A stretch of DNA of 64,000 bases from Candidatus Norongarragalinales archaeon. GTDB lineage: Archaea > Micrarchaeota > Micrarchaeia > Norongarragalinales > Norongarragalinaceae. The stretch is from the NCBI GenBank assembly GCA_038884755.1, contig JAWABJ010000001.1, forward strand, positions 636,953 through 700,952. Direction: 5' to 3'. Shown here piece by piece: positions 27,491 to 51,054 of the stretch. Position 1 is the stretch's first letter. Each line of letters begins with the position of its first letter. The position numbers and the translations under genes were made by a program. The notes under the pieces were generated by a model. It was not told the origin of the DNA, searched no databases, and saw only the letters and a program-made list of their open reading frames with translations.

Positions 27491-27631
27491 TGCTCCGCCC
27501 GGGATTCGAACCCGGGTTGCTGGCTGTCCATACGGCCTTTCTTTTTTCGTCGAGGTTTTTTCTTTCCGCGAAAGAAAAAAAAAAGGTCGTTTGAAAGGCC
27601 AGCGTCCTGGACCGGACTAGACGAGCGGAGC
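27491..27631 (-). tRNA. tRNA-Glu (UUC) with ~66-nt intron after the anticodon loop
   Basis: Acceptor GCTCCGC/GCGGAGC+A, D GTCT/GGAC, anticodon stem CTGGC/GCCAG loop CTTTCAA, T-arm CCGGG-TTCGAAT-CCCGG; intron contains T10-CTTTC-GCG-GAAAG-A6 hairpin. Confidence 0.8.
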
Positions 27632-29508: not shown

Positions 29509-29598
29509 GCCGGAGTAGCTCAGTTGGTTAGAGCGCTAGACTCATAAGCGCAACGCTGTGAAACCTAGAGGTCGGGTGTTCAATTCTCCCCTCCGGCA
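29509..29598 (+). tRNA. tRNA-Met or tRNA-Ile2 (CAU) elongator-type with ~16-nt intron after anticodon loop
   Basis: Acceptor GCCGGAG/CTCCGGC+A, D GCTC/GAGC, anticodon stem CTAGA/CCTAG (A31:C39 mismatch) loop CTCATAA, intron GCGCAACGCTGTGAAA, T-arm GGGTG-TTCAATT-CTCCC (one U:U). Confidence 0.65.
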
Positions 29599-39200: not shown

Positions 39201-39319
39201 TGCACTCCTTCTTCTTTCAAAGCCAAGCAAGCTTGCGCTCCGCTGTAATCGAATTCTGCAGCTTGTCCAATAACTATGGGGCCGCTTCCAACAAGCAAGA
39301 CTTTCTTTGGCTTGTTCAT
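36254..39319 (-). CDS. carB: carbamoyl-phosphate synthase large subunit; start moved to MNKPKKVLLVGSG
   Basis: Two ATP-grasp repeats, oligomerisation and MGS-like domains; ~1020 aa. Confidence 0.95.
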   Translation of the reverse strand: MNKPKKVLLVGSGPIVIGQAAEFDYSGAQACLALKEEGVQVVLVNSNPATIQTDLDTADIVYLEPLTGETIRKIIEKEKPDGFIATMSGQTSLNLAIELRDFLKEKGVKVLGTSIETIELAEDREKFRDLLLKIGEPVPQSLRVKNIEELKKAVGTIGLPVILRPDFNLGGMGTMIVEREEEIEEKGKSCFASSGSGELLVEKSVAGLCEMEYEVIRDSFDNCITICSMENIDPMGIHTGESVVVAPAQTLSDDDHQKLRSAAIKVVRALGVVGACNIQFALDQSSGEYYVIEVNPRTSRSSALASKATGYPIARIAAKLALGYSLIDVENEITGKSAMFEPALDYVVLKVPRWPFDKLYAENEIGTSMRSTGETMAIGRTFEEAYNKALRSVEKRRYSKLVSLEALEKPTETRIFDLLAALKRYSVEEIAHATKINPWFLEKIKNVALVEEELKDNFNEDTLEKAKKQSLSDVMVSKYSGRSVEVIRFMREKQGLHASFKMVDTCAGEFQALTPYYYSTSDGQNEVEPGKAKRKVIILGSGPIRIGQGIEFDYCTVHAVAALKEEGFEAIIINNNPETVSTDFDISSRLYFEPLKIEDVLNVVKQEGEIEGVAVQFGGQTSINLALPLRENKIPILGTSVEAIDIAEDRKKFKKLMKDLKIPIVESGLAFDEQEAFAIASDVGYPLLIRPSYVLGGRAMHLVHNESELREKIVEAIDVSEGHPLLIDHFIEDATELDIDLVGDGSKVFIAGVMEQVDEAGIHSGDSACVIPTISISPKAKAKAIDYSKKIALAMQIKGLCNIQIVVKGDEAFVLEVNPRASRTVPFVSKAIGMPIAKIAAKIQAGVMTLEGFPEIAESKYYCVKMPVFPFNRFPEVDPVVGAEMKSTGETMGIADNFEEAFGKALLAAGMRFGKSVFVGDCGKWKKLLVHKYSDAGLKVYTNAQDWRELMEQGEVSFVVSFNNAKESELRKKAIARKIPLVMGAFQAVRIADSLHKFKDFGIISLNDVALETAKQFERVE

Positions 39320-40455
39320 TTCATCAACTTCAAAAACTCTTCGAAATAAAACGCCGCGTCGTAAGGCCCGGGATTCGCTTCGGGATGGAATTGGATGGAA
39401 AAAGCAGGCAATTCTTTGTGGCGCAAGCCTTCGTTCGTGCCGTCCAAACAATTCACAAGCGTTTCCTCAGCTTCCTTAGGCAAAGACTTCGCGTCTACAG
39501 CATAACCGTGGTTTTGCGACGTAACGAACGCCCGTTCGGTATTAACATCCCTAACTGCGTGGTTCGCCCCGCGGTGTCCAAACTTCAGTTTGAACGTTTT
39601 AGCGCCCAACGCGCTCGCCAAAAGCTGGTGGCCCAAGCAAATGCCGAAAACAGGCTTTTTGCCCAACAGCTTTTTGATTTCAGCAACTTCCTTCGCACAA
39701 ACGACCGGATCTCCAGGCCCGTTCGAAAGCATAATCCCGTCAAAATCGTTTTTCAACACTTCTTCCGCCTTTGTGAAATGCGGAAATACTGTTACTGAAC
39801 AACCGCGTGCAAGCAAATTGTGCACTTGGCTTGTTTTAGCGCCGTAATCCATCAAAGCAACCCGGAATTTCTCGTTCTTGGCGGCAAAAGTCTGAAGCTT
39901 TTTCTCGCTCACCCTCTCGACGAAATTAACGCCAGCATAATCAAACTTTTCCAATTGCTTCAAAGCGTTTTCTTTCACGTTTCCGAAGTCGCTTTCGTTA
40001 ATCGCACCTTTCCAGGTAACTAATGCGGACGGCAAAACGCCGTGCTCACGAATCTTGCGCACAATCGCGCGCGAATCCACGCCAGCAATGCCCGAAACGC
40101 CTTGCTCTTTCAGCAATGCGTCGAGGCTCTTGCGTGAAGCGTAATGGGTTGGCGTTTTACAGGCTTCCCTCACTACAACGCCGTTAGCCCAAACTTTATT
40201 CTCGAAAGACTCGAAAGCGCTTTCGCCCACGCCGTAATTGCCTATCAACGGATACGCAAAAGTGAGAATTTGGCCGGCGTAAGAAGGGTCGGACAAAGAC
40301 TCTTGAAAGCCCATCATGGATGTAGTAAAAACAAGCTCGCCGGTCGAATAGCCTTCAGCGCCCAAGGCTTGGCCTAGAATTACGGAATTGTCGTCGAGAA
40401 ATAGAGCTGCGGACGCCTTAGAAAGAGAACGGGAGGAGACGGAAGACAACGGCAT
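39316..40455 (-). CDS. carA: carbamoyl-phosphate synthase small (glutaminase) subunit
   Basis: N-terminal CPSase small domain + class I GATase (GICLGHQ, HPE). Confidence 0.9.
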   Translation of the reverse strand: MPLSSVSSRSLSKASAALFLDDNSVILGQALGAEGYSTGELVFTTSMMGFQESLSDPSYAGQILTFAYPLIGNYGVGESAFESFENKVWANGVVVREACKTPTHYASRKSLDALLKEQGVSGIAGVDSRAIVRKIREHGVLPSALVTWKGAINESDFGNVKENALKQLEKFDYAGVNFVERVSEKKLQTFAAKNEKFRVALMDYGAKTSQVHNLLARGCSVTVFPHFTKAEEVLKNDFDGIMLSNGPGDPVVCAKEVAEIKKLLGKKPVFGICLGHQLLASALGAKTFKLKFGHRGANHAVRDVNTERAFVTSQNHGYAVDAKSLPKEAEETLVNCLDGTNEGLRHKELPAFSIQFHPEANPGPYDAAFYFEEFLKLMK

Positions 40456-40543
40456 GAAGCCGCCTGAAACACCTTCAACCCCACTAAACATAGCAATCTA
40501 AAATACTACTTTGCGGTGCAAGGAATAAAAGCCTTTGCGACTA

Positions 40544-40568
40544 GCACTGGAAAGCTACTCTAATTAAG
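40544..40568 (+). promoter_or_regulatory. CACTGGAAAGCTACTCT module + TAATTAAGTTTAAAAA TATA-like element ~25 nt upstream of MTase start; same 17-mer heads the two BHB-type rRNA introns upstream of their HEG ORFs
   Basis: 17/17 identity to 16S-intron 5' end (rc of 49684-49700) and 16/17 to 23S L2593 intron (rc of 44015-44031), each followed by A/T-rich TATA-like box and a start codon 30-60 nt downstream. Confidence 0.5.
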
Positions 40569-40589
40569 TTTAAAAACCCTGAATTAGTC

Positions 40590-41465
40590 GTGGTTAAGAC
40601 GAAGAAAATGATAAGCAAGTATTTGAATAAGCTCTATGTTAGAGACTGCCTTAGCTTCATGAAAGAGCTACCGGCAGGCAGCATAGACGTTATAGTAACT
40701 TCGCCACCATACAACATAGGCAAAGAGTACACTACCTACAAAGACGATAAAACTAGGATAGAGTATCTCGACTGGATGGAACAAGTAGCTATAGAGAGCA
40801 AACGAGTATTGAAAGAAAACGGCTCGTTCTTTCTTAATGTTGGCGGAAAACCGTCGGACCTTGCTATTCCTTACGATGTTGAAAACCGGTTTAGAAAATA
40901 CTTTGTCTTACAAAACGACATCATTTGGGTTAAATCAATAACAATCACTAAGGAAGATGTCGGCAAGTCTAATGGCTTAAGAAGTGACGTTTCGGTAGGT
41001 CACTATAAGCCGATTCAAAGCAACAGGTTCCTAAACAATTGCCACGAAAACATATTTCATTTTACTAAACATGGCAAAACAGAGGTAGACAAGCTTTCAA
41101 TTGGAGTGCCTTATCAATACAAATCTAACATAGAACGCTGGGGTAAGACAGAAGACAGAAGGGATAGGGGGGATGTTTGGTTTATCCCTTACGAAACGAT
41201 ACAAAGCCACAGACCACACCCGGCTACGTTTCCAGAAAAACTACCGCTAATGTGCATTAAACTACACGGAGTAAAGAAGGACATTGTAGTTTACGATCCA
41301 TTCATGGGAGTTGGAAACACGCCGTTGGCATGCCTAGAATTGGGAGTAAATTATATTGGCACCGACATCGATAAAGGATATGTTGAAATGGCTGAAGAGT
41401 TTATTCGAGAAAAGAAGGCTCAAGCCAGATTAGCTACAAAGCTCGTATCTCTTTCAGAAGAGTAA
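40590..41465 (+). CDS. beta-class DNA N4-cytosine/N6-adenine methyltransferase (SPPY motif; likely m4C)
   Basis: Motif IV VTSPPYN precedes motif I DPFMGVGNT (beta-class order); pfam N6_N4_Mtase-like; low-GC gene. Confidence 0.8.
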   Translation: MVKTKKMISKYLNKLYVRDCLSFMKELPAGSIDVIVTSPPYNIGKEYTTYKDDKTRIEYLDWMEQVAIESKRVLKENGSFFLNVGGKPSDLAIPYDVENRFRKYFVLQNDIIWVKSITITKEDVGKSNGLRSDVSVGHYKPIQSNRFLNNCHENIFHFTKHGKTEVDKLSIGVPYQYKSNIERWGKTEDRRDRGDVWFIPYETIQSHRPHPATFPEKLPLMCIKLHGVKKDIVVYDPFMGVGNTPLACLELGVNYIGTDIDKGYVEMAEEFIREKKAQARLATKLVSLSEE

Positions 41466-41916
41466 GCGCTTTTTTACGAGAAATTTTCGTAGTAGTGCTT
41501 AATTTTTTATCGTTCCACCATTCAAGCACTTGCCCAACAGGGACGATCCAAAAAGGAATATCTGGAAAAGATTCGATGTCAGAAATTATGAAACCTTCAA
41601 TTTCTCTAAGTTTCTTGAGAAAGCCTTCTTTGCCAAAAGACCGCCCAGAGCCAACCATGTAACTAGGCGAGAAGTAAATACCAGCCTTTGTGATGCTTCG
41701 AACTTCCCACTTGCCGCCTTTAGAATCTAAAAGGTCAAAACCTGCCCCTTCGCTTGGTGCAAGTTTACCATGCAAAACCTCGTAAGCAAGACGACGCTCT
41801 AACAAAAACGAAACGCGCCTCCCGTCAGTGAAGTAAAGCCTAACATCTGCTTCAGTTATTTTGAGAGCATTAGCTATCGCTTTAATATTCCAAGTAAACT
41901 TGCCGCTTGCTTTCAT
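41434..41916 (-). CDS. small putative restriction endonuclease (PD-(D/E)xK-like), convergent with and overlapping 3' end of MTase gene
   Basis: 160 aa, GFDLLDSKGGKWEVRSITK resembles D...(E/D)xK catalytic core of small type IIP REases (PvuII-size class); no database confirmation possible. Confidence 0.4.
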   Translation of the reverse strand: MKASGKFTWNIKAIANALKITEADVRLYFTDGRRVSFLLERRLAYEVLHGKLAPSEGAGFDLLDSKGGKWEVRSITKAGIYFSPSYMVGSGRSFGKEGFLKKLREIEGFIISDIESFPDIPFWIVPVGQVLEWWNDKKLSTTTKISRKKALTLLKEIRAL

Positions 41917-41964
41917 GAAAGAATAAACTAAAAGGGAATTTAAATAAACCCCTAAAAAAAAGGG

Positions 41965-42924
41965 TTAGCGGACTTTGAATTTACTTTTTATCCCCGCCTG
42001 TTCAAAGTGTTCTTTAAGCGAATCTATAAGAGCTTCAGTCATTGAATTTATTGCCTTGTGGCTAGTCCCCATCGCACCCCATTCACAGTCTGTGGACCAT
42101 TGTTCCGATTTCATTTTTGGAATAATGCGCAAAATCTTTTCAAAGGTTTCAGCGGTTATTTCCTTGTTTGGATCAACATAGTTAAGTACGATGTATCGAA
42201 ATAGCTTATTCATCACAAACACTCCGGTCCGTCTGAACAAAACATATTTTGTGGGCTGGGCATGTGCTTCAGAACAAATGTTTCTTATCGCAATCCAATA
42301 GTGATCTAGCATTTTTTCTAATATTTCGGTTGGCGTTCCTTTTAGATCGGATTTGAATATCGGCTCAAGAGAATCGGTAAATGCCTTTTGATTAATAAAT
42401 GCCCCAGATCTCGGTTCTTCGTTAGCCATCTGGATTCGGGTAGACCACACTTTTGAGGATCTATTTAGATATTCTGCTATTGCTAAAGCGTGCGGCTTCC
42501 AGTCAATACCACTAATTACTTGTTGAGGAAGGTTTGCCTTTGATACCCCGATCGTCCCTCCAAATTCTTCCTTTATATGAGGAAGAAACTGCTCTGCTAG
42601 ATCAGTTGGAACGCCTCGTTGAGTTTTATTCATTATAACAAACTGCAGCATCTCAGTGAACTCGATATTTTTTAGACCAGCGGCTTTAGGATCAACCCAC
42701 AAATTCGGACAGATTATTATTACTGGAAAAGGGTATTCTTCAACTCGTTCATCTCCAGGAGGAAAGGAATCGATGAGTTTTCGAAGACCGGCTATCCTGT
42801 GTTGGCCATCAACTTGCCAAAGTTTCTGATTAGGTGGCAAACGAATTTCGCCAAAACTACCGTTAACTTTCTTGAAGATAGGCGTTTTGTCTCTGGAATA
42901 GGCGCTGACTTTTCTTTTTTTCAC
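41965..42924 (-). CDS. DGQHR-domain protein (DndB-like / ParB-Srx superfamily)
   Basis: Diagnostic motif WQVDGQHRIAGL near N-terminus; 319 aa; 48 nt upstream of the small nuclease gene on the same strand. Confidence 0.6.
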   Translation of the reverse strand: MKKRKVSAYSRDKTPIFKKVNGSFGEIRLPPNQKLWQVDGQHRIAGLRKLIDSFPPGDERVEEYPFPVIIICPNLWVDPKAAGLKNIEFTEMLQFVIMNKTQRGVPTDLAEQFLPHIKEEFGGTIGVSKANLPQQVISGIDWKPHALAIAEYLNRSSKVWSTRIQMANEEPRSGAFINQKAFTDSLEPIFKSDLKGTPTEILEKMLDHYWIAIRNICSEAHAQPTKYVLFRRTGVFVMNKLFRYIVLNYVDPNKEITAETFEKILRIIPKMKSEQWSTDCEWGAMGTSHKAINSMTEALIDSLKEHFEQAGIKSKFKVR

Positions 42925-43273
42925 GCTGTGCAGGTTTTCTCGAGGGGTAGTCTCACGATTAGAAACATCAAAGCTTTACAGCTCTGCTTCCAAACAATTG
43001 TGAGGTTATGGTCGTTAGTAACGCTCGGCTGAACACCTCGCTTGCGCTTGGTGCGTACACCTGCGTCCTATCAAACTCATCTGCTATGAGTGACCTAAGC
43101 CGCTTCGTTTCAGGATTGGCTTCGTCCTTAGCTAGGCAGCAGTTTTTCCAAGGTTTTTTTCCTACGGAAAAAAAGCTTATGCCTTCAGGACTTATCCTAA
43201 TGGCGCGTGGCTACCCTGCTTGCTTGCAAACAACAGGCGAACCAGAGGCGCCGGATCGATGTTCCTCTCGTAC

Positions 43274-43975
43274 TTATCGATCCTTCCCTTCAAGCGGCCA
43301 AACAATCCTAAAAGATGCAACCGAACTGTCTATGTCGCCTCTTCTAGAACGCTTAAGCAATTCAAAACGAAACACTTTATCCGGATGAGCCGAATCAAAA
43401 CAATCGTAAAACTTCAACACTTGCTCGCTCCCGTGAACCATCAACGCAAACATTTGCGTTTGGCTTCCTTTCTTAACGTACGGCCCGCAAACGCGTCCGC
43501 AGCGAACTCCGAATTCGGAAACGATTTCCTTTATTTCGCCCAGAACACCCTGGTTGGCTTGAGCCAAATAAACCCGAATGTCCTTTTCAGGAATGTTCAA
43601 AGTCGTTTTCTCGAAGGAATTAACGCTTCCCTCCGCATCGAAAAAACCCCGGACGTAAGCCGCCTTAAGTTCTCCAGAGCCTTTTGAAATCCACGTTGGG
43701 GTTAGCCAAGTGGATTGGTCTCCGTTGAATTCAGCGAACTTCGAAAGTTCTTGAAAAACTTTCTTGGAAGTAATGCTCAAACACCAAACGCCATGCCGCT
43801 CGTCGAAGTAAAAGCTAGCGTTCTTGCCGAAATTCCTTTCGAGAATTCCGGCCAAAAGCTCGAGCCATCGTTTGCTCTTTTGGTAAAACCCGATTCGATA
43901 AATGCCTTGTTCAGGAATGCTCGTGATGTTTCCATCACGCAAGGCTCCGATCAAGTAAGCGATTTCTTCATTCAC
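43274..43975 (-). CDS. double-motif LAGLIDADG homing endonuclease (GTG start assumed at 43975; last 19 codons run past the 3' splice site into exon 2)
   Basis: Motifs LIGALRDGN and GFFDAEGSV; ORF-track N-terminal 78 codons (43976-44209) are translated 23S exon/intron-5' sequence and rejected. Confidence 0.7.
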   Translation of the reverse strand: MNEEIAYLIGALRDGNITSIPEQGIYRIGFYQKSKRWLELLAGILERNFGKNASFYFDERHGVWCLSITSKKVFQELSKFAEFNGDQSTWLTPTWISKGSGELKAAYVRGFFDAEGSVNSFEKTTLNIPEKDIRVYLAQANQGVLGEIKEIVSEFGVRCGRVCGPYVKKGSQTQMFALMVHGSEQVLKFYDCFDSAHPDKVFRFELLKRSRRGDIDSSVASFRIVWPLEGKDR

Positions 43976-44070
43976 GATTAATCCGAAATCTTCCTCTGCT
44001 TTTAAATCTTGAGAGAGTGGCTTTCCAGTGCTTCCAGTGAATTGCCTATGATTGTGCGTTCTAAAAGAGG
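43331..44070 (-). mobile_element. archaeal (bulge-helix-bulge type) intron in 23S at the I-CreI-like site (E. coli ~2593), carrying a LAGLIDADG ORF
   Basis: Splits AACGUCGCGA|GACAGUUCGG; intron termini CCUCUUUUAGAACGC...GCGUUCUAGAAGAGG are complementary (long terminal helix typical of archaeal rRNA introns); no group I core elements. Confidence 0.7.
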
Positions 44071-44191
44071 TCGCGACGTTCTGAACCCAACTAACGTAGG
44101 TCTTTAATGGATGAACAACCCAACCCTTGGTGGCTCCTGCACCACCAGGATGACCTGAGCCGATAGCGATGTACCAAACCGCGGTGTCGAT

Positions 44192-44393
44192 TTGTCCTTT
44201 GCAGAACAATCTTTCCCGCCCCCTACGCGTTGAGCGTCAGAGTTCAAACCGGTCACTAACATCTTTTGCGAGAGATTACCTAAACCTAACCAGCATGGAT
44301 GCCAGTGTCGGTTTAAACGAAGACTGATCGCTCAAAACACGGGGTTGAAAAAGAAAGTTCCATTCGCCTTTCAAATGAAAGAAAGGGGAAAAA
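44192..44393 (-). mobile_element. ~200-nt insertion in 23S between GAGAGUUCAU and AUCGACACCGCGG (E. coli ~2500 site); ORF-less, type undetermined
   Basis: Flanking exon sequences align to conserved domain V; insert lacks group I R/S elements; contains CCUUUC...GAAAGG hairpin. Confidence 0.5.
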
Positions 44394-44517
44394 ATGAACT
44401 CTCAACCGCGACGAGCCTGTTACCCCCGGGGTAGCTTGTCTGTCAGAATGAGCCCTCATTAAAAGGGCATCATTGTTCGTTAAGCCCTGCTTTCGCACCT
44501 GCGACCCATAAAACAGA

Positions 44518-44555
44518 TTTTTCTTTACTTGATTTTTCTTTCGTAAAGAAAAATC
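44518..44555. repeat. hairpin-repeat insertion in 23S: UUUUUCUUUACUUGAUUUUUCUUUCGUAAAGAAAAAUC
   Basis: Near-identical (35/38) to copy in 16S at 49958-49997. Confidence 0.7.
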
Positions 44556-44984
44556 ATTTGTTAAGATCACAGTCAATCCAGCATTTGTCTTTGACCCTCT
44601 ACAACGCATTTCTAACGCGTCTGAGCTGAATATTGGGCGCCTTTGTTATCTTTTCGAAGGCGTGCCGCCCCAGCCAAACCACCCACCTGCAGCTGTCTTT
44701 CTTTCGAAATGAGCAATGCAGTCGAAAAATAGCAGTGTCACACTTTCGCCTATCGCACTCCCGGAAGAGTGCGCTTGACGGCTCCTGCTTACGCTTTGAT
44801 TCTCCAACCGAATTACAACAACAGGCTGTGGTTAAGCTCCACGGGGTCTTCGTTTCCCTTTAGGATTCCTCGGCATGTTCACCGAGAAGTAGGTTCACCA
44901 GGTCCAAGGTAGGGACAGCAAGACAGTCGTTACGCCATTCATGCAAGCCGCCAATTAAGCGGCGAGGTACTACGCTACCTTAAG

Positions 44985-45709
44985 CAACTTTTCGTATGCA
45001 TTTTGCACTGAAAAGCTGGACTATATCTTCACCGTCTTAGGGTGTTCGGCGTATAGTCTCTGAGGATCCTGTCTTTGCGTCCAACTCTTGCATTATTTCA
45101 TCCAAAGTGCTCTTGCGTTGTTTTCCTTCCAAATTCATTCGGAAGGCCAAGCGCACGAGTTTTTTGAACGAGTCAAGGTCGGAATGCTCTTTTCTTTCTA
45201 ACGCTTCAACAATTTCCTTGAACAGAAGAAAGTCTTTCTCTTTCGAGACAAGCGGATACTTGTCGAAAAAAGGAATTACTTTCTCCGCCAACTGCCTTCG
45301 GTTGTCTACAACGAACTGCATTAATTCCGGTTGACCGTGTTTTTCCACGACCCTTCCGCAAGAAAGCCTGCTTCGGAATAAATCCAAAACCGCTTGTCCT
45401 TGCTTGTGTTGGGTTACGTGAAAAACCGGGTCTAAAACCAACCCGAATTTTGCAGTGTCTTCTTGTTTTAAAGACACGTTGAAACAACCTTCAGCGTCGG
45501 CGAATCCGCTCAAGAAAAAATCGGCGTTTCTTCCTTTCGTGAGTTTACTCAACCCAGCCATAGGCAACCACCTTTTTGGTTCTTTTAAAATTACAGTTTC
45601 CTGCTGATAGCATTCAACGTTTCAAGCTCTTTTCCTTACTCAGGGTCTTGAAACTCCCGCGTTCCAGCATACAGCCGAATTTAGCGACTCCCTTTAACTT
45701 GATTGCTCA
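44985..45709 (-). mobile_element. group I-like intron in 23S (E. coli ~1917 site) carrying LAGLIDADG ORF
   Basis: 5' exon ends ...GACUCU (U at -1) pairing with internal guide GGGAGUC (U:G at splice site); P-like AACGCGGGAG, Q-like UAUCAGCAGG, R-like CAGAGACUAUACG, S element AAGAUAUAGUCC (exact consensus), P9 hairpin, terminal G; ligated exons restore ..UAACUCUGACUCU|CUUAAGGUAGCG. Confidence 0.7.
45037..45567 (-). CDS. single-motif LAGLIDADG homing endonuclease (TTG/ATG start), encoded from P6 region through P7/P8 of the group I intron
   Basis: LSGFADAEGCF motif; 176 aa; R element encoded as ...SETIRR..., stop codon in P8 loop. Confidence 0.75.
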   Translation of the reverse strand: MPMAGLSKLTKGRNADFFLSGFADAEGCFNVSLKQEDTAKFGLVLDPVFHVTQHKQGQAVLDLFRSRLSCGRVVEKHGQPELMQFVVDNRRQLAEKVIPFFDKYPLVSKEKDFLLFKEIVEALERKEHSDLDSFKKLVRLAFRMNLEGKQRKSTLDEIMQELDAKTGSSETIRRTP

Positions 45710-46023
45710 AGAGTCAGAGTTACTCCCGCTCTTTGCCAGTCCTTTGCTCCCTTGAAAAGGAGTTTGAGATACTGGTAGTGAGCAGGCGTCAACCATCGTA
45801 CTCAACCTTTCGGTTTTGCGATGATTTGTGTTTTTGATAAACAGTCGCTGTCTCCTTGCCACTGCGACCTACAAACCCCCAATCGACAAAGTCTATGGAA
45901 GAATGTAGGCAGCCCTTCTTCCGAAGTTACGGGCCTAGATTGCCGAATTCCCTTACCATGGTTCTCCTGCCACGCCTTGGCTTGCTCTGCCAGGACCACC
46001 TTTCAGTAAAAAATTTCTTTGGG

Positions 46024-46063
46024 TTTTCTTTACTGAATTTTTCTTTTCCCAAAAGAAAAATTC
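46024..46063. repeat. hairpin-repeat insertion in 23S: UUUUCUUUACUGAAUUUUUCUUUUCCCAAAAGAAAAAUUC
   Basis: Shares UUUCUUUACU-N-AAUUUUUCUUU...AAAGAAAAAUU module with 44518 and 49958 copies. Confidence 0.65.
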
Positions 46064-47920
46064 TTGTACTGGTTCTGGGTACGGACACTCGAGATCACTC
46101 CCGCTCCATTTTCACGGACTCTAGGATTCAGCCCAACCCCCTTGCGGAGGCCATTCCCAGCTTCAACGAGTGCTCCTCATTACGAGACTTCCCCGTTGTA
46201 TTCAAGTTAACAACGATGCGCGTTGTGGGCCTATCCCTAAGCGTTTGGATGCGGGCTTGCGTTGCCGCACTTACTCAAGTGGTACGCGAATGTTAACGCG
46301 TTTCCCTTTCGACATCACTGTCGTTTAGTCTTAGGACCGACTTACTCTTGGTCGACTAACGTTGCCAAGAAACCCTTAGTCCTTTCGGCGTCCAGGATTC
46401 ACACCTGGAATAGTTGCTACTAGCACCAAGATCTTCATTGCAATCCGCTCCACAAGACCTCACGGCCTTGCTTCTGCGCGAACTGCACGCCCCTCTACTA
46501 AATCACGCTCAACAAAGCGTGTTCTGAAGTATCGGCGAACTGCTTAGTCCCGAGAGTTTACAACGCTCCAGTCCTTGATGGGTCCGCTGTTACGCGTTGT
46601 TTAAAGGATGGCAGCTTCTGTTCCTACCTCCCCACTGTCTGAGAACCGAAACGTCTTGAAGAACACTCAGCAGTTTCTTAGGGGCCTTAACTCCAGTAAG
46701 CGTCTTTACGCCCTCGCCGCACGCGCTTAACTCATGCGGCCAACTCCTGTCTTCTACAACGTCGTTAGCTTCGGAGTTTGATAGCAAAGTGAGGGCTTTC
46801 GCCCCCGTGCTTCGCAATCGGTAGCTCTACCTAACGACAATCTCCAACAGGGCTGAACTGCGGTTCACTTCGAAGGGAACCCGCTATCGCCAAGCTCGAA
46901 TGCACTTTCATCCCTAAACGCGAGTCACCCAAGAGGCTAGACCATCACTGGTTTCGGGCTTCCACCACCCTGAAGGGCGGCTTCACCCTGCTCACGCTTA
47001 GATCGCTTTGGCTTCGGGTCTCACGAGAGTGACTTGACGCCGGTTAAGACGTTCTCCCTCGCACCTTGCGGTGTTGCGGAGTTTTCGCTTTCGCTATGCA
47101 CAATGCTTGCCACTCTCGTGAACTCCTTGGCTCTTGCTTCAAGAAGTACGACACGACCCCGTGCCCTCTTCGGGCCTTTCGGGCCGAGTCTTCATGTCGC
47201 CTTACAATTTCAGGCACTTTTAACGCCGCTTTCGCGGTGCTTTTCAGTTTTCCCTCACGGTACTGAATTCGCTATCGGTCTTGAGTTGTATTTTAGGGTT
47301 GCAAGTTAATACTCGCGTTTTCACACAGCCAATCCAGGCTATGCTACTCTGGAATTCCTCCCATCCCCTTTCGGTTCGCTTACACGGCTTTCACGTTCTA
47401 AAGCGGCATTTTCCAATGCCCTTCAGCTCTCGATCGGGGATTAAAAGAAGGAACCCAAACTCCACATTTCTACTCTCTTTGCAGAGAGGATTCGGTTTGC
47501 CCTGATGCGCTTTCGTTCGCACTAATCACGCAATCCCTATTGGTTTCTCTTCCTCCGCTTACTAAGATATTTCAATTCAGCGGGTGTGCGCTCTTTCCAG
47601 AGCATTCGGGAACCTTGGGTTCAAAGCCTGCATGCGGCTACCCCAAGCTTTTCGCAGCTTGCCACGCCCTTCGTCGCCACTCAAGCCAAACCATCCACTG
47701 TAAGGCTTTGCAACAACTACTCCTCGATAAACCTGCACAGCTTCATGAAAATATGCACTCTTGCGAGTGCATTAAATCAGCACTTCGAATTCAAACGCCC
47801 GTGCAAGGGGTCTTGCTTTGAATTCTGTTTTCTTCGCCCGCAAACCGTTTTGAGGCGGTCAGCGGACACACGCATTTTCCTGTGATTTCCGCGCTCCGGT
47901 TTTTTCCGGCGGTTTTTCTT

Positions 47921-48274: not shown

Positions 48275-48490
48275 CATGTAGTTCCACATGTCGCCATGCG
48301 GCATGGACTATATCATCATCTCAATTTCTTGAGCGTCTGCGTGTAGTCTCTGAGGGGTCAATCATTTTCATGACGACTTCCCTGCTGATAGACCCCACCT
48401 GAACCGTTGCCGGTTCAGGATACACGGGTTGTTCCAGCATACAGCAGATTTTGTCTGCATCCTCGCGGATGCAGGTCGCAACATAAGTTT
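48275..48490 (-). mobile_element. 216-nt ORF-less group I intron near 16S 3' end (between GUCGU and AACAAGGUAACC; E. coli ~1506 site)
   Basis: U at -1 with IGS GCGAC pairing exon GUCGU (U:G); P2 CUGCAUCC/GGAUGCAG, P5 CUGAACCG-GCAA-CGGUUCAG, Q-like UAUCAGCAGG, R CAGAGACUACACG, P8 CUCAAGAAAUUGAG, S GAUGAUAUAGUCC, P9 CCAUGCCGCAUGG, terminal G; core elements near-identical to the 23S L1917 intron. Confidence 0.7.
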
Positions 48491-49031
48491 ACGACTTAAC
48501 CCTCCTCATGAAGATCTAGCTCGAATGCGACCGAAGTCGCAGCCTCACTAAAACCTCACTTGGATGGCTTGACGGGCGGTGTGTGCAAGGAGCGGGGACA
48601 TATTCACCGCGCGATGATGACACGCGATTACTAGGGATTCCAACTTCATGGGGGCGAGTTTCAGCCCCCAATCTGTACTGGAGTAGGGTTTAGGTGATTG
48701 CCTCCGCCTTTCGGCGTCGGAACACATTGTCCCTACTATTGTATGCCACGTGTGGCCCAGCAGATTCAGGCCATACGGACCTAGCGTCGCCTTCTCCTTC
48801 CTCCCACTTAACGCGGGCAGTCTCCACAGAGTGCCCTCCGAATTGCTTCGAAGGTAGCAACTGTGGACGAAGATCTCGCTCGTTGCACGACTTAACGTGA
48901 CACCTCACGGCACGAGCTGGCGCTGGCCATGCAACACTTCTCGGCTTGTTGGCTAAGATCTTTAGTCTGAGCTTCATACTGCCGTCTCTGCTGGTGAGTT
49001 TCCCGGCGTTGAGTCCAATTGAACCGCAGCA

Positions 49032-49719
<688 letters not shown>

Positions 49720-49957
49720 TCCTTTAAGTTTCAATCTTGCGATCGTACTCCCCAAGCGGCAGACTAAACGTTTTCACTACGGCACTGCAGCAACGCGAAG
49801 TCGCTGCAACGCCAAGTCTGCATCATTTACTGCACAGGACTACTCGGGTATCTAATCCGATTCGCTACCCTGGCCTTCGTTCCTCACCGTCAGACGTGTT
49901 TTGTCCAAGCGCTTTCGCCACCGATGGTCCTCTAAGGATTACAGGATTGTAAGCACA

Positions 49958-49997
49958 GTTTTTCTTTACTCAATTTTTCTTTCGTAAAGAAAAATTG
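49958..49997. repeat. hairpin-repeat insertion in 16S (within the ~720 region): UUUUUCUUUACUCAAUUUUUCUUUCGUAAAGAAAAAUUG
   Basis: Interrupts conserved GGGGUGAAAUCCUGUAAUCC context; near-identical to 23S copy. Confidence 0.7.
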
Positions 49998-51054
49998 TTT
50001 TACTCCTCCCCCTAAAGTACCCTTGGACTCCCCCACTCTCAAGCTCGGTAGTATTCCCTGCACGCCCATCCGTTGAGCGGATGGATTTCACAGGAAACTT
50101 GCCAAGCCGGCTACGGACGCTTTAAGCTCAATATTCGTGGATACCACTAGTTCTACCTGTGTTACCGCGGCGGCTGGCACAGGATTTACCCAGAACTTAT
50201 TCCACCGGCTATTCAAGCCGGTTAAAAGCCGACCTTTCGATCGGCACTCGGACTACCCCCATCACGCTTTCGCGCATTGTGGAATTTTCGCGCCTGCTGC
50301 ATCCCGTAGGACTCGGGCCCTTGTCTCAGTGCCCGTCTCGGGGCTCCTACTCCCATAGCCCCTACTGATTATAGGTTTGGTGGGCCGTTACCTCACCAAC
50401 AGCCTAATCAGCCGCAGTGCCATCTTACAGCAAACTTGCTCCAATTCGCTTTTTTTTCAACCGCCAACCGTTCCAGGTACGGCGGCCTATGGCGTGTTAC
50501 CCGCACTTTCGCGCGGTTATTCGCCTCTGTAAGGTAGGTTCACTACGTGTTACTGAGCCGTTTGCCGGGATTACAAGTGTAATCCCCAAACTTGCATGGC
50601 TTAGTCGTAATCCGATAGCAGTATCCTCCAGCAGGATCAACTGGTGTTGTCCTAACACCCGATTCGGGTGTTAGGACGGAGATCGCAAGAACTAACTTAT
50701 CTTGCGGAATGAGCGTCTTGCATAGAGTTATTTGCTCTCTTCTTCCCCTGCGTCGAACCCAAATGAGAATCGCTTGCCATCAGAGATGGAAGAACATAAT
50801 TCTTTGTTTGAGTGCCCATGATCGCTGTAGTAGTAAAAATAGCAACGCCAGTCATGGATTCACGCAGAGGCGAAAAACGCGATAGCAAGGCGTTTCTACG
50901 CTCTCAGATAAAGTCTTCTATGGCTTGCCGGGAACTACAGCATTAGAAAAAACACTCTTTCCGAAGAAAGAATGCCTTTATTAAATCGTCGAAAGGAGTT
51001 TAAAAAGCTTTTGAATCAACCGCGGGATGTAGCGCTTTGCAAGCGAAACAAATA

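Follow-up and report, generated by a model that had tools for sequence, protein, structure and literature searches.

A probable GTAC-type restriction-modification pair beside the apparent relic of a DndB-like DGQHR gene in a Norongarragalinales archaeon

Type II restriction-modification (R-M) systems of the RsaI/MjaV type join a small restriction endonuclease (REase) of the PD-(D/E)xK fold to a beta-class DNA methyltransferase (MTase) with an SPPY motif, and their methyltransferases, M.RsaI and M.MjaV, form N4-methylcytosine (m4C) in the sequence GTAC (PMC2588503, PMC6256690). The DndB protein of DNA phosphorothioation systems carries a DGQHR motif and is described as an ATP-modulated repressor and autoregulator (PMC12065111 ref. 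48; bioRxiv 10.1101/2025.10.10.680097); it represses its own operon through an experimentally mapped operator, TACG-N10-CGTA (PMC4507180). A general link of ParB-like DGQHR/DUF262 genes to R-M loci was noted in 2013 (PMC3632139). Genes of both kinds meet in the 64-kb stretch of DNA analysed here (hereafter the window), which comes from a metagenome-assembled genome (MAG) of the DPANN archaeon Candidatus Norongarragalinales: an MTase gene and an REase gene resembling the RsaI/MjaV type lie next to a gene for a 319-residue DGQHR protein, all three in a low-GC islet between carA and the 23S rRNA gene (Table 1). The evidence as a whole is probably best explained, in our judgement with reasonable though not high confidence, by an autonomous, probably GTAC-type R-M pair accompanied by an inactivated DndB-like gene, a putative controller.

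The case for inactivation is built on comparison of the DGQHR protein, which is identical to the hypothetical protein QXR53_03820 of the Candidatus Norongarragalinales MAG, with its eight close homologues among 5.8 billion clusters. Six of these are full length (378-404 residues), and the other two lack C-terminal parts only, P0122 (353 residues) at a contig end inside the gene and P0129 (283 residues) at an in-frame stop. In each of the eight, the N-terminus consists of some 66 conserved residues (KFPAFELxQNGKVFYLTYM...GYQRR...SPTAIILSY) that are absent from the window protein, whose homology to its relatives begins at about its 8th residue and whose DGQHR box falls at residues 39-43. The GYQR motif lies in the missing part, as do three to four beta-strands of the ParB-like domain, so that the protein does not have the complete ParB-like N-domain with both nucleotide-binding boxes. 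When 18 sequences are aligned, this segment shows a proline and the YQR residues to be near-invariant; the YQR box, conserved to that degree in 17 relatives, is absent from the window protein. Because of the truncation, the window protein stays below the TIGR03187 cut-off (56.2 against 58.85 bits, over model positions 76-275 only), whereas the matches of seven full-length relatives begin at position 1 and reach 89-123 bits. The first-pass annotation had identified the 319-residue product correctly as a DGQHR/DndB-like protein, but had missed that it is truncated.

Nor does the lost portion lie nearby. An in-frame stop stands in the 71-nt flank of the 23S rRNA gene upstream of GTG 42924, the missing N-terminus is not present in any upstream frame, and tblastn with the N-termini of the relatives finds no match in the window. 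No TATA-like element is seen upstream of the open reading frame (ORF), and the GTAC operator array that precedes some related genes (see below) is absent there. Taken together, these observations point, with the same reasonable confidence, to a relic, in which the first ~66 codons and the upstream control region were deleted and the remainder came to abut the 3' flank of the 23S rRNA gene; loss of DGQHR function in the window would follow.

Two features weigh against this reading, namely that the truncated ORF is open for 319 codons and has not decayed, and that the protein deviates at 8 of 76 otherwise invariant columns, a rate shared by its full-length sister P0122. Since the frame is open and invariant columns are altered no more than in P0122, either the deletion appears to be recent or the remnant is still constrained. 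The same features could be taken to mean that the 319-residue protein is a short functional isoform and that the three genes work together as a three-component defence system or as a regulated variant of R-M, which is what the first-pass annotation had proposed. Such a view could also draw on the retained DGQHR box, C-terminal domain and most otherwise invariant residues, and on the position of the gene directly upstream of the REase gene and co-directional with it, as in the related loci L026 and L015. It is nonetheless a quite unlikely one, given a near-invariant motif and ParB-core strands that are gone, a score under a curated cut-off, a missing promoter-like element, a lost operator array, and the presence of the N-terminal region in every close relative. 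An assembly artefact, with a full-length gene here or elsewhere in the real genome, is less likely still. The breakpoint does lie within ~70 nt of the 23S 3' end, and rRNA operons are common mis-join points in MAGs, the source of this sequence; against this, the carAB and rRNA flanks are alike in GC content (~0.48-0.52) and cleanly enclose the low-GC islet, the contig extends over 714 kb, and a mis-join needs sequence common to the DGQHR gene and the rRNA flank, of which none was found. A working two-gene R-M system plus a relic therefore remains the reading we prefer, again with some confidence, over a functional three-gene system. What is apparently a second decaying copy, or possibly a sequencing error, is found in L007 (1868-3025), where the DGQHR gene has an in-frame stop at 2732-2734 although the MjaV-type R-M pair next to it is intact; a decayed copy there fits the view that the DGQHR accessory is dispensable.

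The resemblance to DndB consists of the DGQHR motif, a ParB/Srx-like N-domain with a helical C-domain and, in the relatives, upstream 4-bp boxes separated by N10. The window protein nevertheless scores below the cut-offs of Pfam DndB (PF14072; 20.9 against 29.1 bits) and DGQHR_dnd_1 (19.4 against 450), has no match to TIGR03233, is truncated at its N-terminus and, unlike DndB, is partnered by a methylation-based Type II R-M system. No Dnd models (dndACDE) are among the top 25 families listed from each of PADLOC and Pfam for the other 46 ORFs of the window, and the neighbouring genes are carA, the REase, the MTase and rRNA. DpdB, the ATPase of the 7-deazaguanine (Dpd) system, which carries DGQQR in place of DGQHR (PMC10164549), is the best PADLOC match for the C-terminal two-thirds of the protein (2e-8) and shares its two-domain architecture; the score against NF041060 is 30.6 bits, with a cut-off of 300, and the listed window matches include no TGT/DpdA family or Dpd models. 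Searches of the PDB with the protein gave no significant match, and tblastn against phages gave none. A housekeeping ParB was considered and rejected as the identity of the 319-residue protein: its best profile matches are to DGQHR, DndB and DpdB, and the rest of the window consists of housekeeping genes, with no Dnd or Dpd models among the matches listed.

In contrast to the DGQHR gene, the R-M genes are intact and typical. The MTase (291 residues) reaches 164.3 bits against the Pfam N6_N4_Mtase model, with a cut-off of 26.7. Its motif IV, SPPY, at residues 38-41, precedes motif I, FMGVG (FxGxG), near residue 248, and the enzyme is therefore of the beta-class order. SPPY is typical of m4C enzymes without being exclusive to them, and the best PDB relatives are N4-cytosine MTases (2e-18); the product is probably m4C. 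The MTase shares 75% identity with those of L026 and L015; with the L007 MTase, whose partner is an MjaV-family REase, its full-length identity is 51.5%. Translation probably starts at ATG 40608 rather than at GTG 40590, since the TATA-like element upstream lies too near the GTG (14-21 nt, as against 32-39 nt before the ATG) and the profile alignment begins at residue 12.

The 160-residue partner, identical to the hypothetical protein QXR53_03815 of the same MAG, has the PD-(D/E)xK core fold, and the PADLOC REase_II model (PDLC03550) covers its residues 6-157. It matches no Pfam family, has no significant match in the PDB and none by tblastn against plasmids; the 993 homologues found are archaeal and bacterial, the best 120 of the 993 being 65-79% identical. 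The sole annotated relative found is an ORF of phage Syn19 (ADO99404) that its depositors labelled 'R.RsaI endonuclease' (hhalign 97.8%, E 1.1e-12). The proposed catalytic motif is D61...E71-x-R73, in which all three residues are invariant within the family and E71-x-R73 aligns with the E-x-K of the phage homologue. This invariant arginine, in place of the usual lysine, distinguishes the family from RsaI/MjaV-type systems, as do the DPANN host, a specificity deduced from sequence, and the third, DGQHR gene carried by some relatives of the pair. With these assignments, two proteins annotated as hypothetical, the DGQHR protein and the REase, can now be named.

The first-pass annotation had described three ORFs, a beta-class SPPY MTase converging on and overlapping by 32 nt a nuclease-like ORF of 160 codons, and a low-GC island between carA and the rRNA operon; each of these was recovered at the same coordinates. 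Its functional three-component system was not borne out, both for the losses from the DGQHR gene set out above and for the organisation of the pair itself. The MTase and the REase each seem to have their own TTTAAA-type (TATA-like) promoter. That of the REase would be the TTTAAA at 41944-41939, which ends 23 nt upstream of the ATG and suggests a leaderless mRNA, and a hairpin with a T-run sits just past the DGQHR stop codon. Among 80 genome loci carrying this REase, a convergent pair with the window type of MTase recurs in about a dozen archaeal loci, and bacterial loci have other MTases as partners. A DGQHR gene accompanies the REase only in L015 and L026 and, as a distant fusion protein, in L016/L018. 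The MTase and the 160-residue REase form a complete, intact Type II R-M pair and, given that the convergent pair recurs in archaeal loci that have no DGQHR gene, can be read as a self-sufficient two-gene system. The pairing is seen in at least 13 loci, and convergent overlap or near-abutment of the two 3' ends (-35 to +4 nt) is found in L008-L010, L012, L013, L015, L019, L020, L026, L028, L043, L058 and L079, and is a trait of this R-M family. In L016 (5977-10356; L018 is the same), the gene for a 721-residue protein with a weak DndB-domain match has as neighbours a pair of paralogous genes for RsaI-like REases and two for MTases.

GTAC with m4C methylation is, by a modest preference, the probable target of the pair. 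Five lines of evidence point to it: the homologue labelled R.RsaI, the identity to the MTase partnered with MjaV, the specificity of M.RsaI and M.MjaV, the depletion of GTAC, and the GTAC boxes upstream of related DGQHR genes. The ratio of observed to expected GTAC (O/E) is 0.74 in loci with the REase (per-locus median 0.57) and 0.94 in controls (0.73), with a per-locus Mann-Whitney p of 0.005. Set against this, the O/E of GTAC in the window is 0.71, an only moderate depletion exceeded by that of GATC (0.43), and the RsaI label is another group's annotation of a phage gene and not a comparison with a REBASE sequence. Palindrome avoidance thus lends weak support only to the deduction of the target, with a modest GTAC signal in the pooled REase loci and GATC lowest in the window. 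Across the whole window, no 4-bp palindrome is more depleted than GATC (63 sites, where 147 are expected), a hint that the genome has, or once had, a GATC-specific system in another place.

In related archaea, Type II R-M systems are repeatedly joined by a full-length DGQHR gene as a third partner. An MTase or REase is recognised within 3 kb in 25 of the 74 non-redundant DGQHR loci, and in the clade of the window gene (hidden Markov model score >= 380) seven of nine loci directly adjoin R-M genes (Table 1). The DndB-like, ParB-fold protein travels with REases of at least five unrelated families and with several classes of MTase, a diversity that reads as the signature of a specificity-independent accessory module. 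The suggestion of the first-pass annotation that the association of DGQHR, REase and MTase is non-random is thereby upheld, the order of the window genes recurring in L026 with a full-length gene and in L015 with a fusion; its statement that the family is otherwise known from phosphorothioation systems was too narrow, given that DpdB is a DGQHR protein and that the link to R-M loci had been noted earlier. For the particular arrangement of DGQHR and R-M genes, no description was found in the open-access literature and, as far as could be found there, a DGQHR and R-M module with target-site boxes is undescribed. Chance adjacency, produced by the clustering of defence genes in islands and devoid of functional meaning, would fit the 49 of 74 DGQHR loci with no recognised R-M gene and the presence of a DGQHR gene in only 3-4 of the 80 loci with this REase. 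It is highly improbable all the same, in view of the fixed arrangements in the window clade, one of them an apparent operon (L001), and of GTAC boxes that precede DGQHR genes precisely in loci with MjaV (GTAC) or RsaI-like (presumably GTAC) REases.

Other arrangements were seen elsewhere in the family. Proteins of ~1050 residues in L154 (739-3924) and L161 (2782-5931) consist of a UvrD-like superfamily 1 helicase fused to a DndB/DGQHR domain. DGQHR genes also have two other recurrent partners on their downstream side, seen across L120, L124, L126, L127, L140, L157 and L162, and L132-L135, L143 and L147. One is an unannotated protein of ~174 residues, which in three loci follows the order MTase, MjaV REase, DGQHR, and the other is a protein of ~148 residues that is followed by a PC4-like single-stranded DNA-binding protein.

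Upstream of the DGQHR start codon in L001-L007, L095 and L096, which represent six distinct sequences and encode proteins 66-74% identical to P0125, a TATA-like element (TTTTTATAT) is followed by three GGTAC boxes with an exact start-to-start spacing of 14 nt, that is, GTAC-N10-GTAC-N10-GTAC. In an alignment of these arrays, the GTAC columns are invariant and the spacers variable, and the triple array has no other instance in comparison loci totalling 1.36 Mb. When viral contigs were scanned for three copies of GGTAC-N9, 95 stretches matched, many of them more than once and with overlap, as tandem repeats would; none of the 95 bears a DGQHR or REase gene. Transcription would start in or near the second box, judging from archaeal promoter geometry, and this region would be the usual site of an archaeal repressor. 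The geometry of the array equals that of the DndB operator. The boxes occur with either REase family, RsaI-like or MjaV, and because MjaV is a known GTAC enzyme and the RsaI-like enzymes are probably GTAC enzymes too, the boxes match what is presumably the target of the partner MTase. In this clade, the promoter of the DGQHR gene thus contains the presumed restriction site three times.

The sequence of the boxes differs among clades. In bacterial L130, L131, L137 and L138, four to five copies of GATC(T) stand at an exact 13-nt spacing and overlap the -35/-10 promoter (at 784-840, 800-856, 493-549 and 434-477, respectively). The gene upstream of DGQHR in L138 is a TGT (DpdA-like), and the other neighbours of these bacterial genes have no Pfam or PADLOC matches. 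Boxes of the form AACTTGTAC or AACTTAT are found in L139, L145 and L149, and L180, which among the relatives is closest to the window gene, has GGTGTC/GGTAAC/GGTGAC boxes. An array as such therefore seems to be a family trait.

From these observations a role can be proposed, tentatively and with somewhat less than even confidence: the family would be a DndB-like, NTP-modulated autoregulator that also governs the adjacent R-M genes, a functional analogue of the C proteins of other R-M systems. In the proposed mechanism, full-length DGQHR protein would bind DNA much as DndB does, on the array of 4-bp boxes with 10-nt gaps between the TATA box and its own start codon, and its binding would control the R-M genes that are co-transcribed or share the intergenic region. 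With boxes that are the presumed site of the cognate MTase, the switch could read their methylation state, so that the cell's methylation state would be read out in the expression of the module, and the regulator would stand in place of the helix-turn-helix (HTH) type of C protein. Sensitivity of the regulator to methylation of its own operator is a doubtful extension of this proposal, and similarly doubtful is the idea that the full-length clade, loading on target-site boxes, makes up a class of its own, until now undescribed, among the controllers or sensors of Type II R-M systems, with members in DPANN archaea and some bacteria. In the window, the accessory gene has lost a conserved part of its nucleotide-binding domain along with its control region, and the R-M pair now stands alone, as in many other archaea.

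The likeness to C proteins would lie in a small accessory gene that precedes the R and M genes or diverges from them, with repeated palindromic boxes in its own promoter. C proteins differ in being ~80-residue proteins with an Xre-type HTH, as against a ParB-fold, NTPase-like family of ~380 residues; none of the three window proteins matches an HTH family, and the resemblance is to be understood as functional only. The DUF262 proteins (GmrS, SspE, DndI, BrxU) of Type IV and modification-sensing systems share the ParB-like superfamily and a DGxxR box. Unlike them, the DGQHR family has neither a DUF1524/HNH nuclease domain nor EHxxP, and it accompanies a classical R-M pair instead of forming an alternative to one.

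Several observations count against the proposed controller. Analogous arrays with a 13-nt period have other box sequences, and L026, despite its window-like gene order, has degenerate boxes only; the agreement of box and R-M target may therefore be fortuitous and peculiar to a single clade. Fusions to UvrD-like helicases occur in some DGQHR relatives, one relative has a weak N-terminal match to a nuclease domain (E 0.0079, below the Pfam cut-off), and DpdB is an ATPase that assists modification and is required for DNA modification by DpdA (PMC10164549). The fusions, the nuclease hint and the DpdB ATPase point to a DNA-processing rather than a regulatory role. On this basis, the family could be a DNA-acting accessory, either a ParB-like NTPase clamp aiding the MTase or REase or an independent effector of defence or abortive infection that moves together with R-M genes. 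In its favour are also the DUF262 relatives SspE, DndI and GmrSD, which are modification sensors coupled to nucleases, the position of the nuclease-hint protein beside the same type of R-M system, and a cell-death role suggested for such genes by Makarova et al. (PMC3632139). The invariant columns of the 18-sequence alignment contain no conserved His or Glu nuclease motif in the C-terminal domain, however, and the upstream arrays have DndB-operator geometry and overlap the expected transcription start, as is typical of autoregulators. The range of unrelated REase and MTase partners also speaks against a specific enzymatic partnership between proteins, and we regard the accessory role as the main rival, though somewhat less likely than the regulatory one. 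For the window, the regulatory and accessory readings give the same conclusion, a relic beside a stand-alone R-M pair; what the first-pass annotation saw as a three-gene system is, for this genome, best taken as a standard R-M pair plus a gene fragment. Should regulation of R-M genes or methylation sensing prove true of the full-length proteins, DndB-type control would extend from phosphorothioation to methylation-based R-M systems, and the ParB NTPase-switch family would gain a new job.

Table 1. Features of the islet and its borders in the window, and arrangement of DGQHR and R-M genes in related loci
Feature or locus	Positions	Strand	Evidence or arrangement
carA, carbamoyl-phosphate synthase small subunit	39316..40491	-	Pfam CPSase_sm_chain 1.4e-44, GATase 1.4e-50; left boundary of islet
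TATA-like element (TTTAAAAA) upstream of MTase	40569..40576	+	Read from sequence; promoter role suggested by archaeal promoter geometry
Beta-class N4/N6 DNA methyltransferase	40590..41465	+	PF01555 5.4e-48; PADLOC MTase_II PDLC03295 1.4e-106
Convergent 3' overlap of MTase and REase genes, 32 nt	41434..41465	.	ORF coordinates
Type II restriction endonuclease, 160 residues, PD-(D/E)xK fold, RsaI-like family	41434..41916	-	PADLOC REase_II PDLC03550 1.4e-51
Spacer between DGQHR and REase genes, 48 nt	41917..41964	-	Hairpin and T-run 41966-41947 (terminator-like match); TTTAAA 41944-41939
5'-truncated DGQHR gene (DndB-like, ParB/Srx fold)	41965..42924	-	DGQHR box and whole C-terminal helical domain kept; ~66 N-terminal residues gone
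Junction from 23S 3' end to GTG of truncated gene, 71 nt	42925..42995	-	Three-frame translation, tblastn
3' exon of 23S rRNA, with sarcin-ricin loop	42996..43331	-	Infernal LSU_rRNA_archaea, model positions 2429-2987; right boundary of islet
L026 (Ca. Ainarchaeum)			DGQHR -> REase -> <- MTase; window families and order, 372-residue DGQHR protein
L015			Window gene order, 654-residue DGQHR fusion protein
L004, L005			Window REase family, divergent from DGQHR gene
L001			DGQHR -> MTase -> MjaV-family REase, apparent operon
L007, L095			MjaV-family REase adjoining DGQHR gene
L088			MvaI/BcnI REase, MTase, small winged-HTH gene and DGQHR gene
L093, L094, L168, L173			Sau3AI/MutH-like REase and 5-methylcytosine MTase, divergent from or tandem with DGQHR gene
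L174			MTase only, then contig end
L139, L145, L149			Hjc-like nuclease and 5-methylcytosine MTase

The setting of the three genes suggests, with the same degree of confidence as the overall reading, that the R-M pair is foreign DNA acquired horizontally. The GC content is 0.39-0.42 over 40500-42950, with a drop at ~40500, and 0.47-0.52 on either flank, so that the islet (~0.40 against ~0.50) is 2.5 kb long and its limits are exactly carA and the 23S 3' flank. Direct or inverted repeats and att-like sites were sought around it, and only short, chance-level matches were found. Archaeal 16S and 23S rRNA, RNase P and tRNAs are present in the window (Rfam), and its remaining genes are of the housekeeping kind, including a thermosome, aminoacyl-tRNA synthetases, SecDF and glycolytic enzymes (Pfam/PADLOC). 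The right boundary depends on the end of the 23S rRNA gene, which a first Rfam pass had wrongly put at 44036 and a focused Infernal search placed at 42996; the sequence of the sarcin-ricin loop is recognisable at ~43270, and a 741-nt insertion carrying a LAGLIDADG ORF lies at ~43332-44072.

The rRNA genes of the window exceed their models in length. The 23S rRNA gene (42996-47722, minus strand) spans ~4.7 kb, as against a model of 2987 nt, and holds at least two insertions with ORFs for LAGLIDADG homing endonucleases, one being the 741-nt insertion near the sarcin-ricin loop, which is overlapped by ORF 43274-44209, and the other marked by ORF 45037-45567 (LAGLIDADG_1, 3.8e-20). A group I intron match (51.8 bits, 48284-48500, minus strand) extends into the 3' end of the gene for 16S rRNA (48443-50647, minus strand), which measures ~2.2 kb in comparison with a 1478-nt model and therefore also contains insertions. 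Two tRNA matches, at 27491-27631 (minus strand) and 29509-29598 (plus strand), are 141 and 90 nt long, far above 71 nt, and probably have introns inside.

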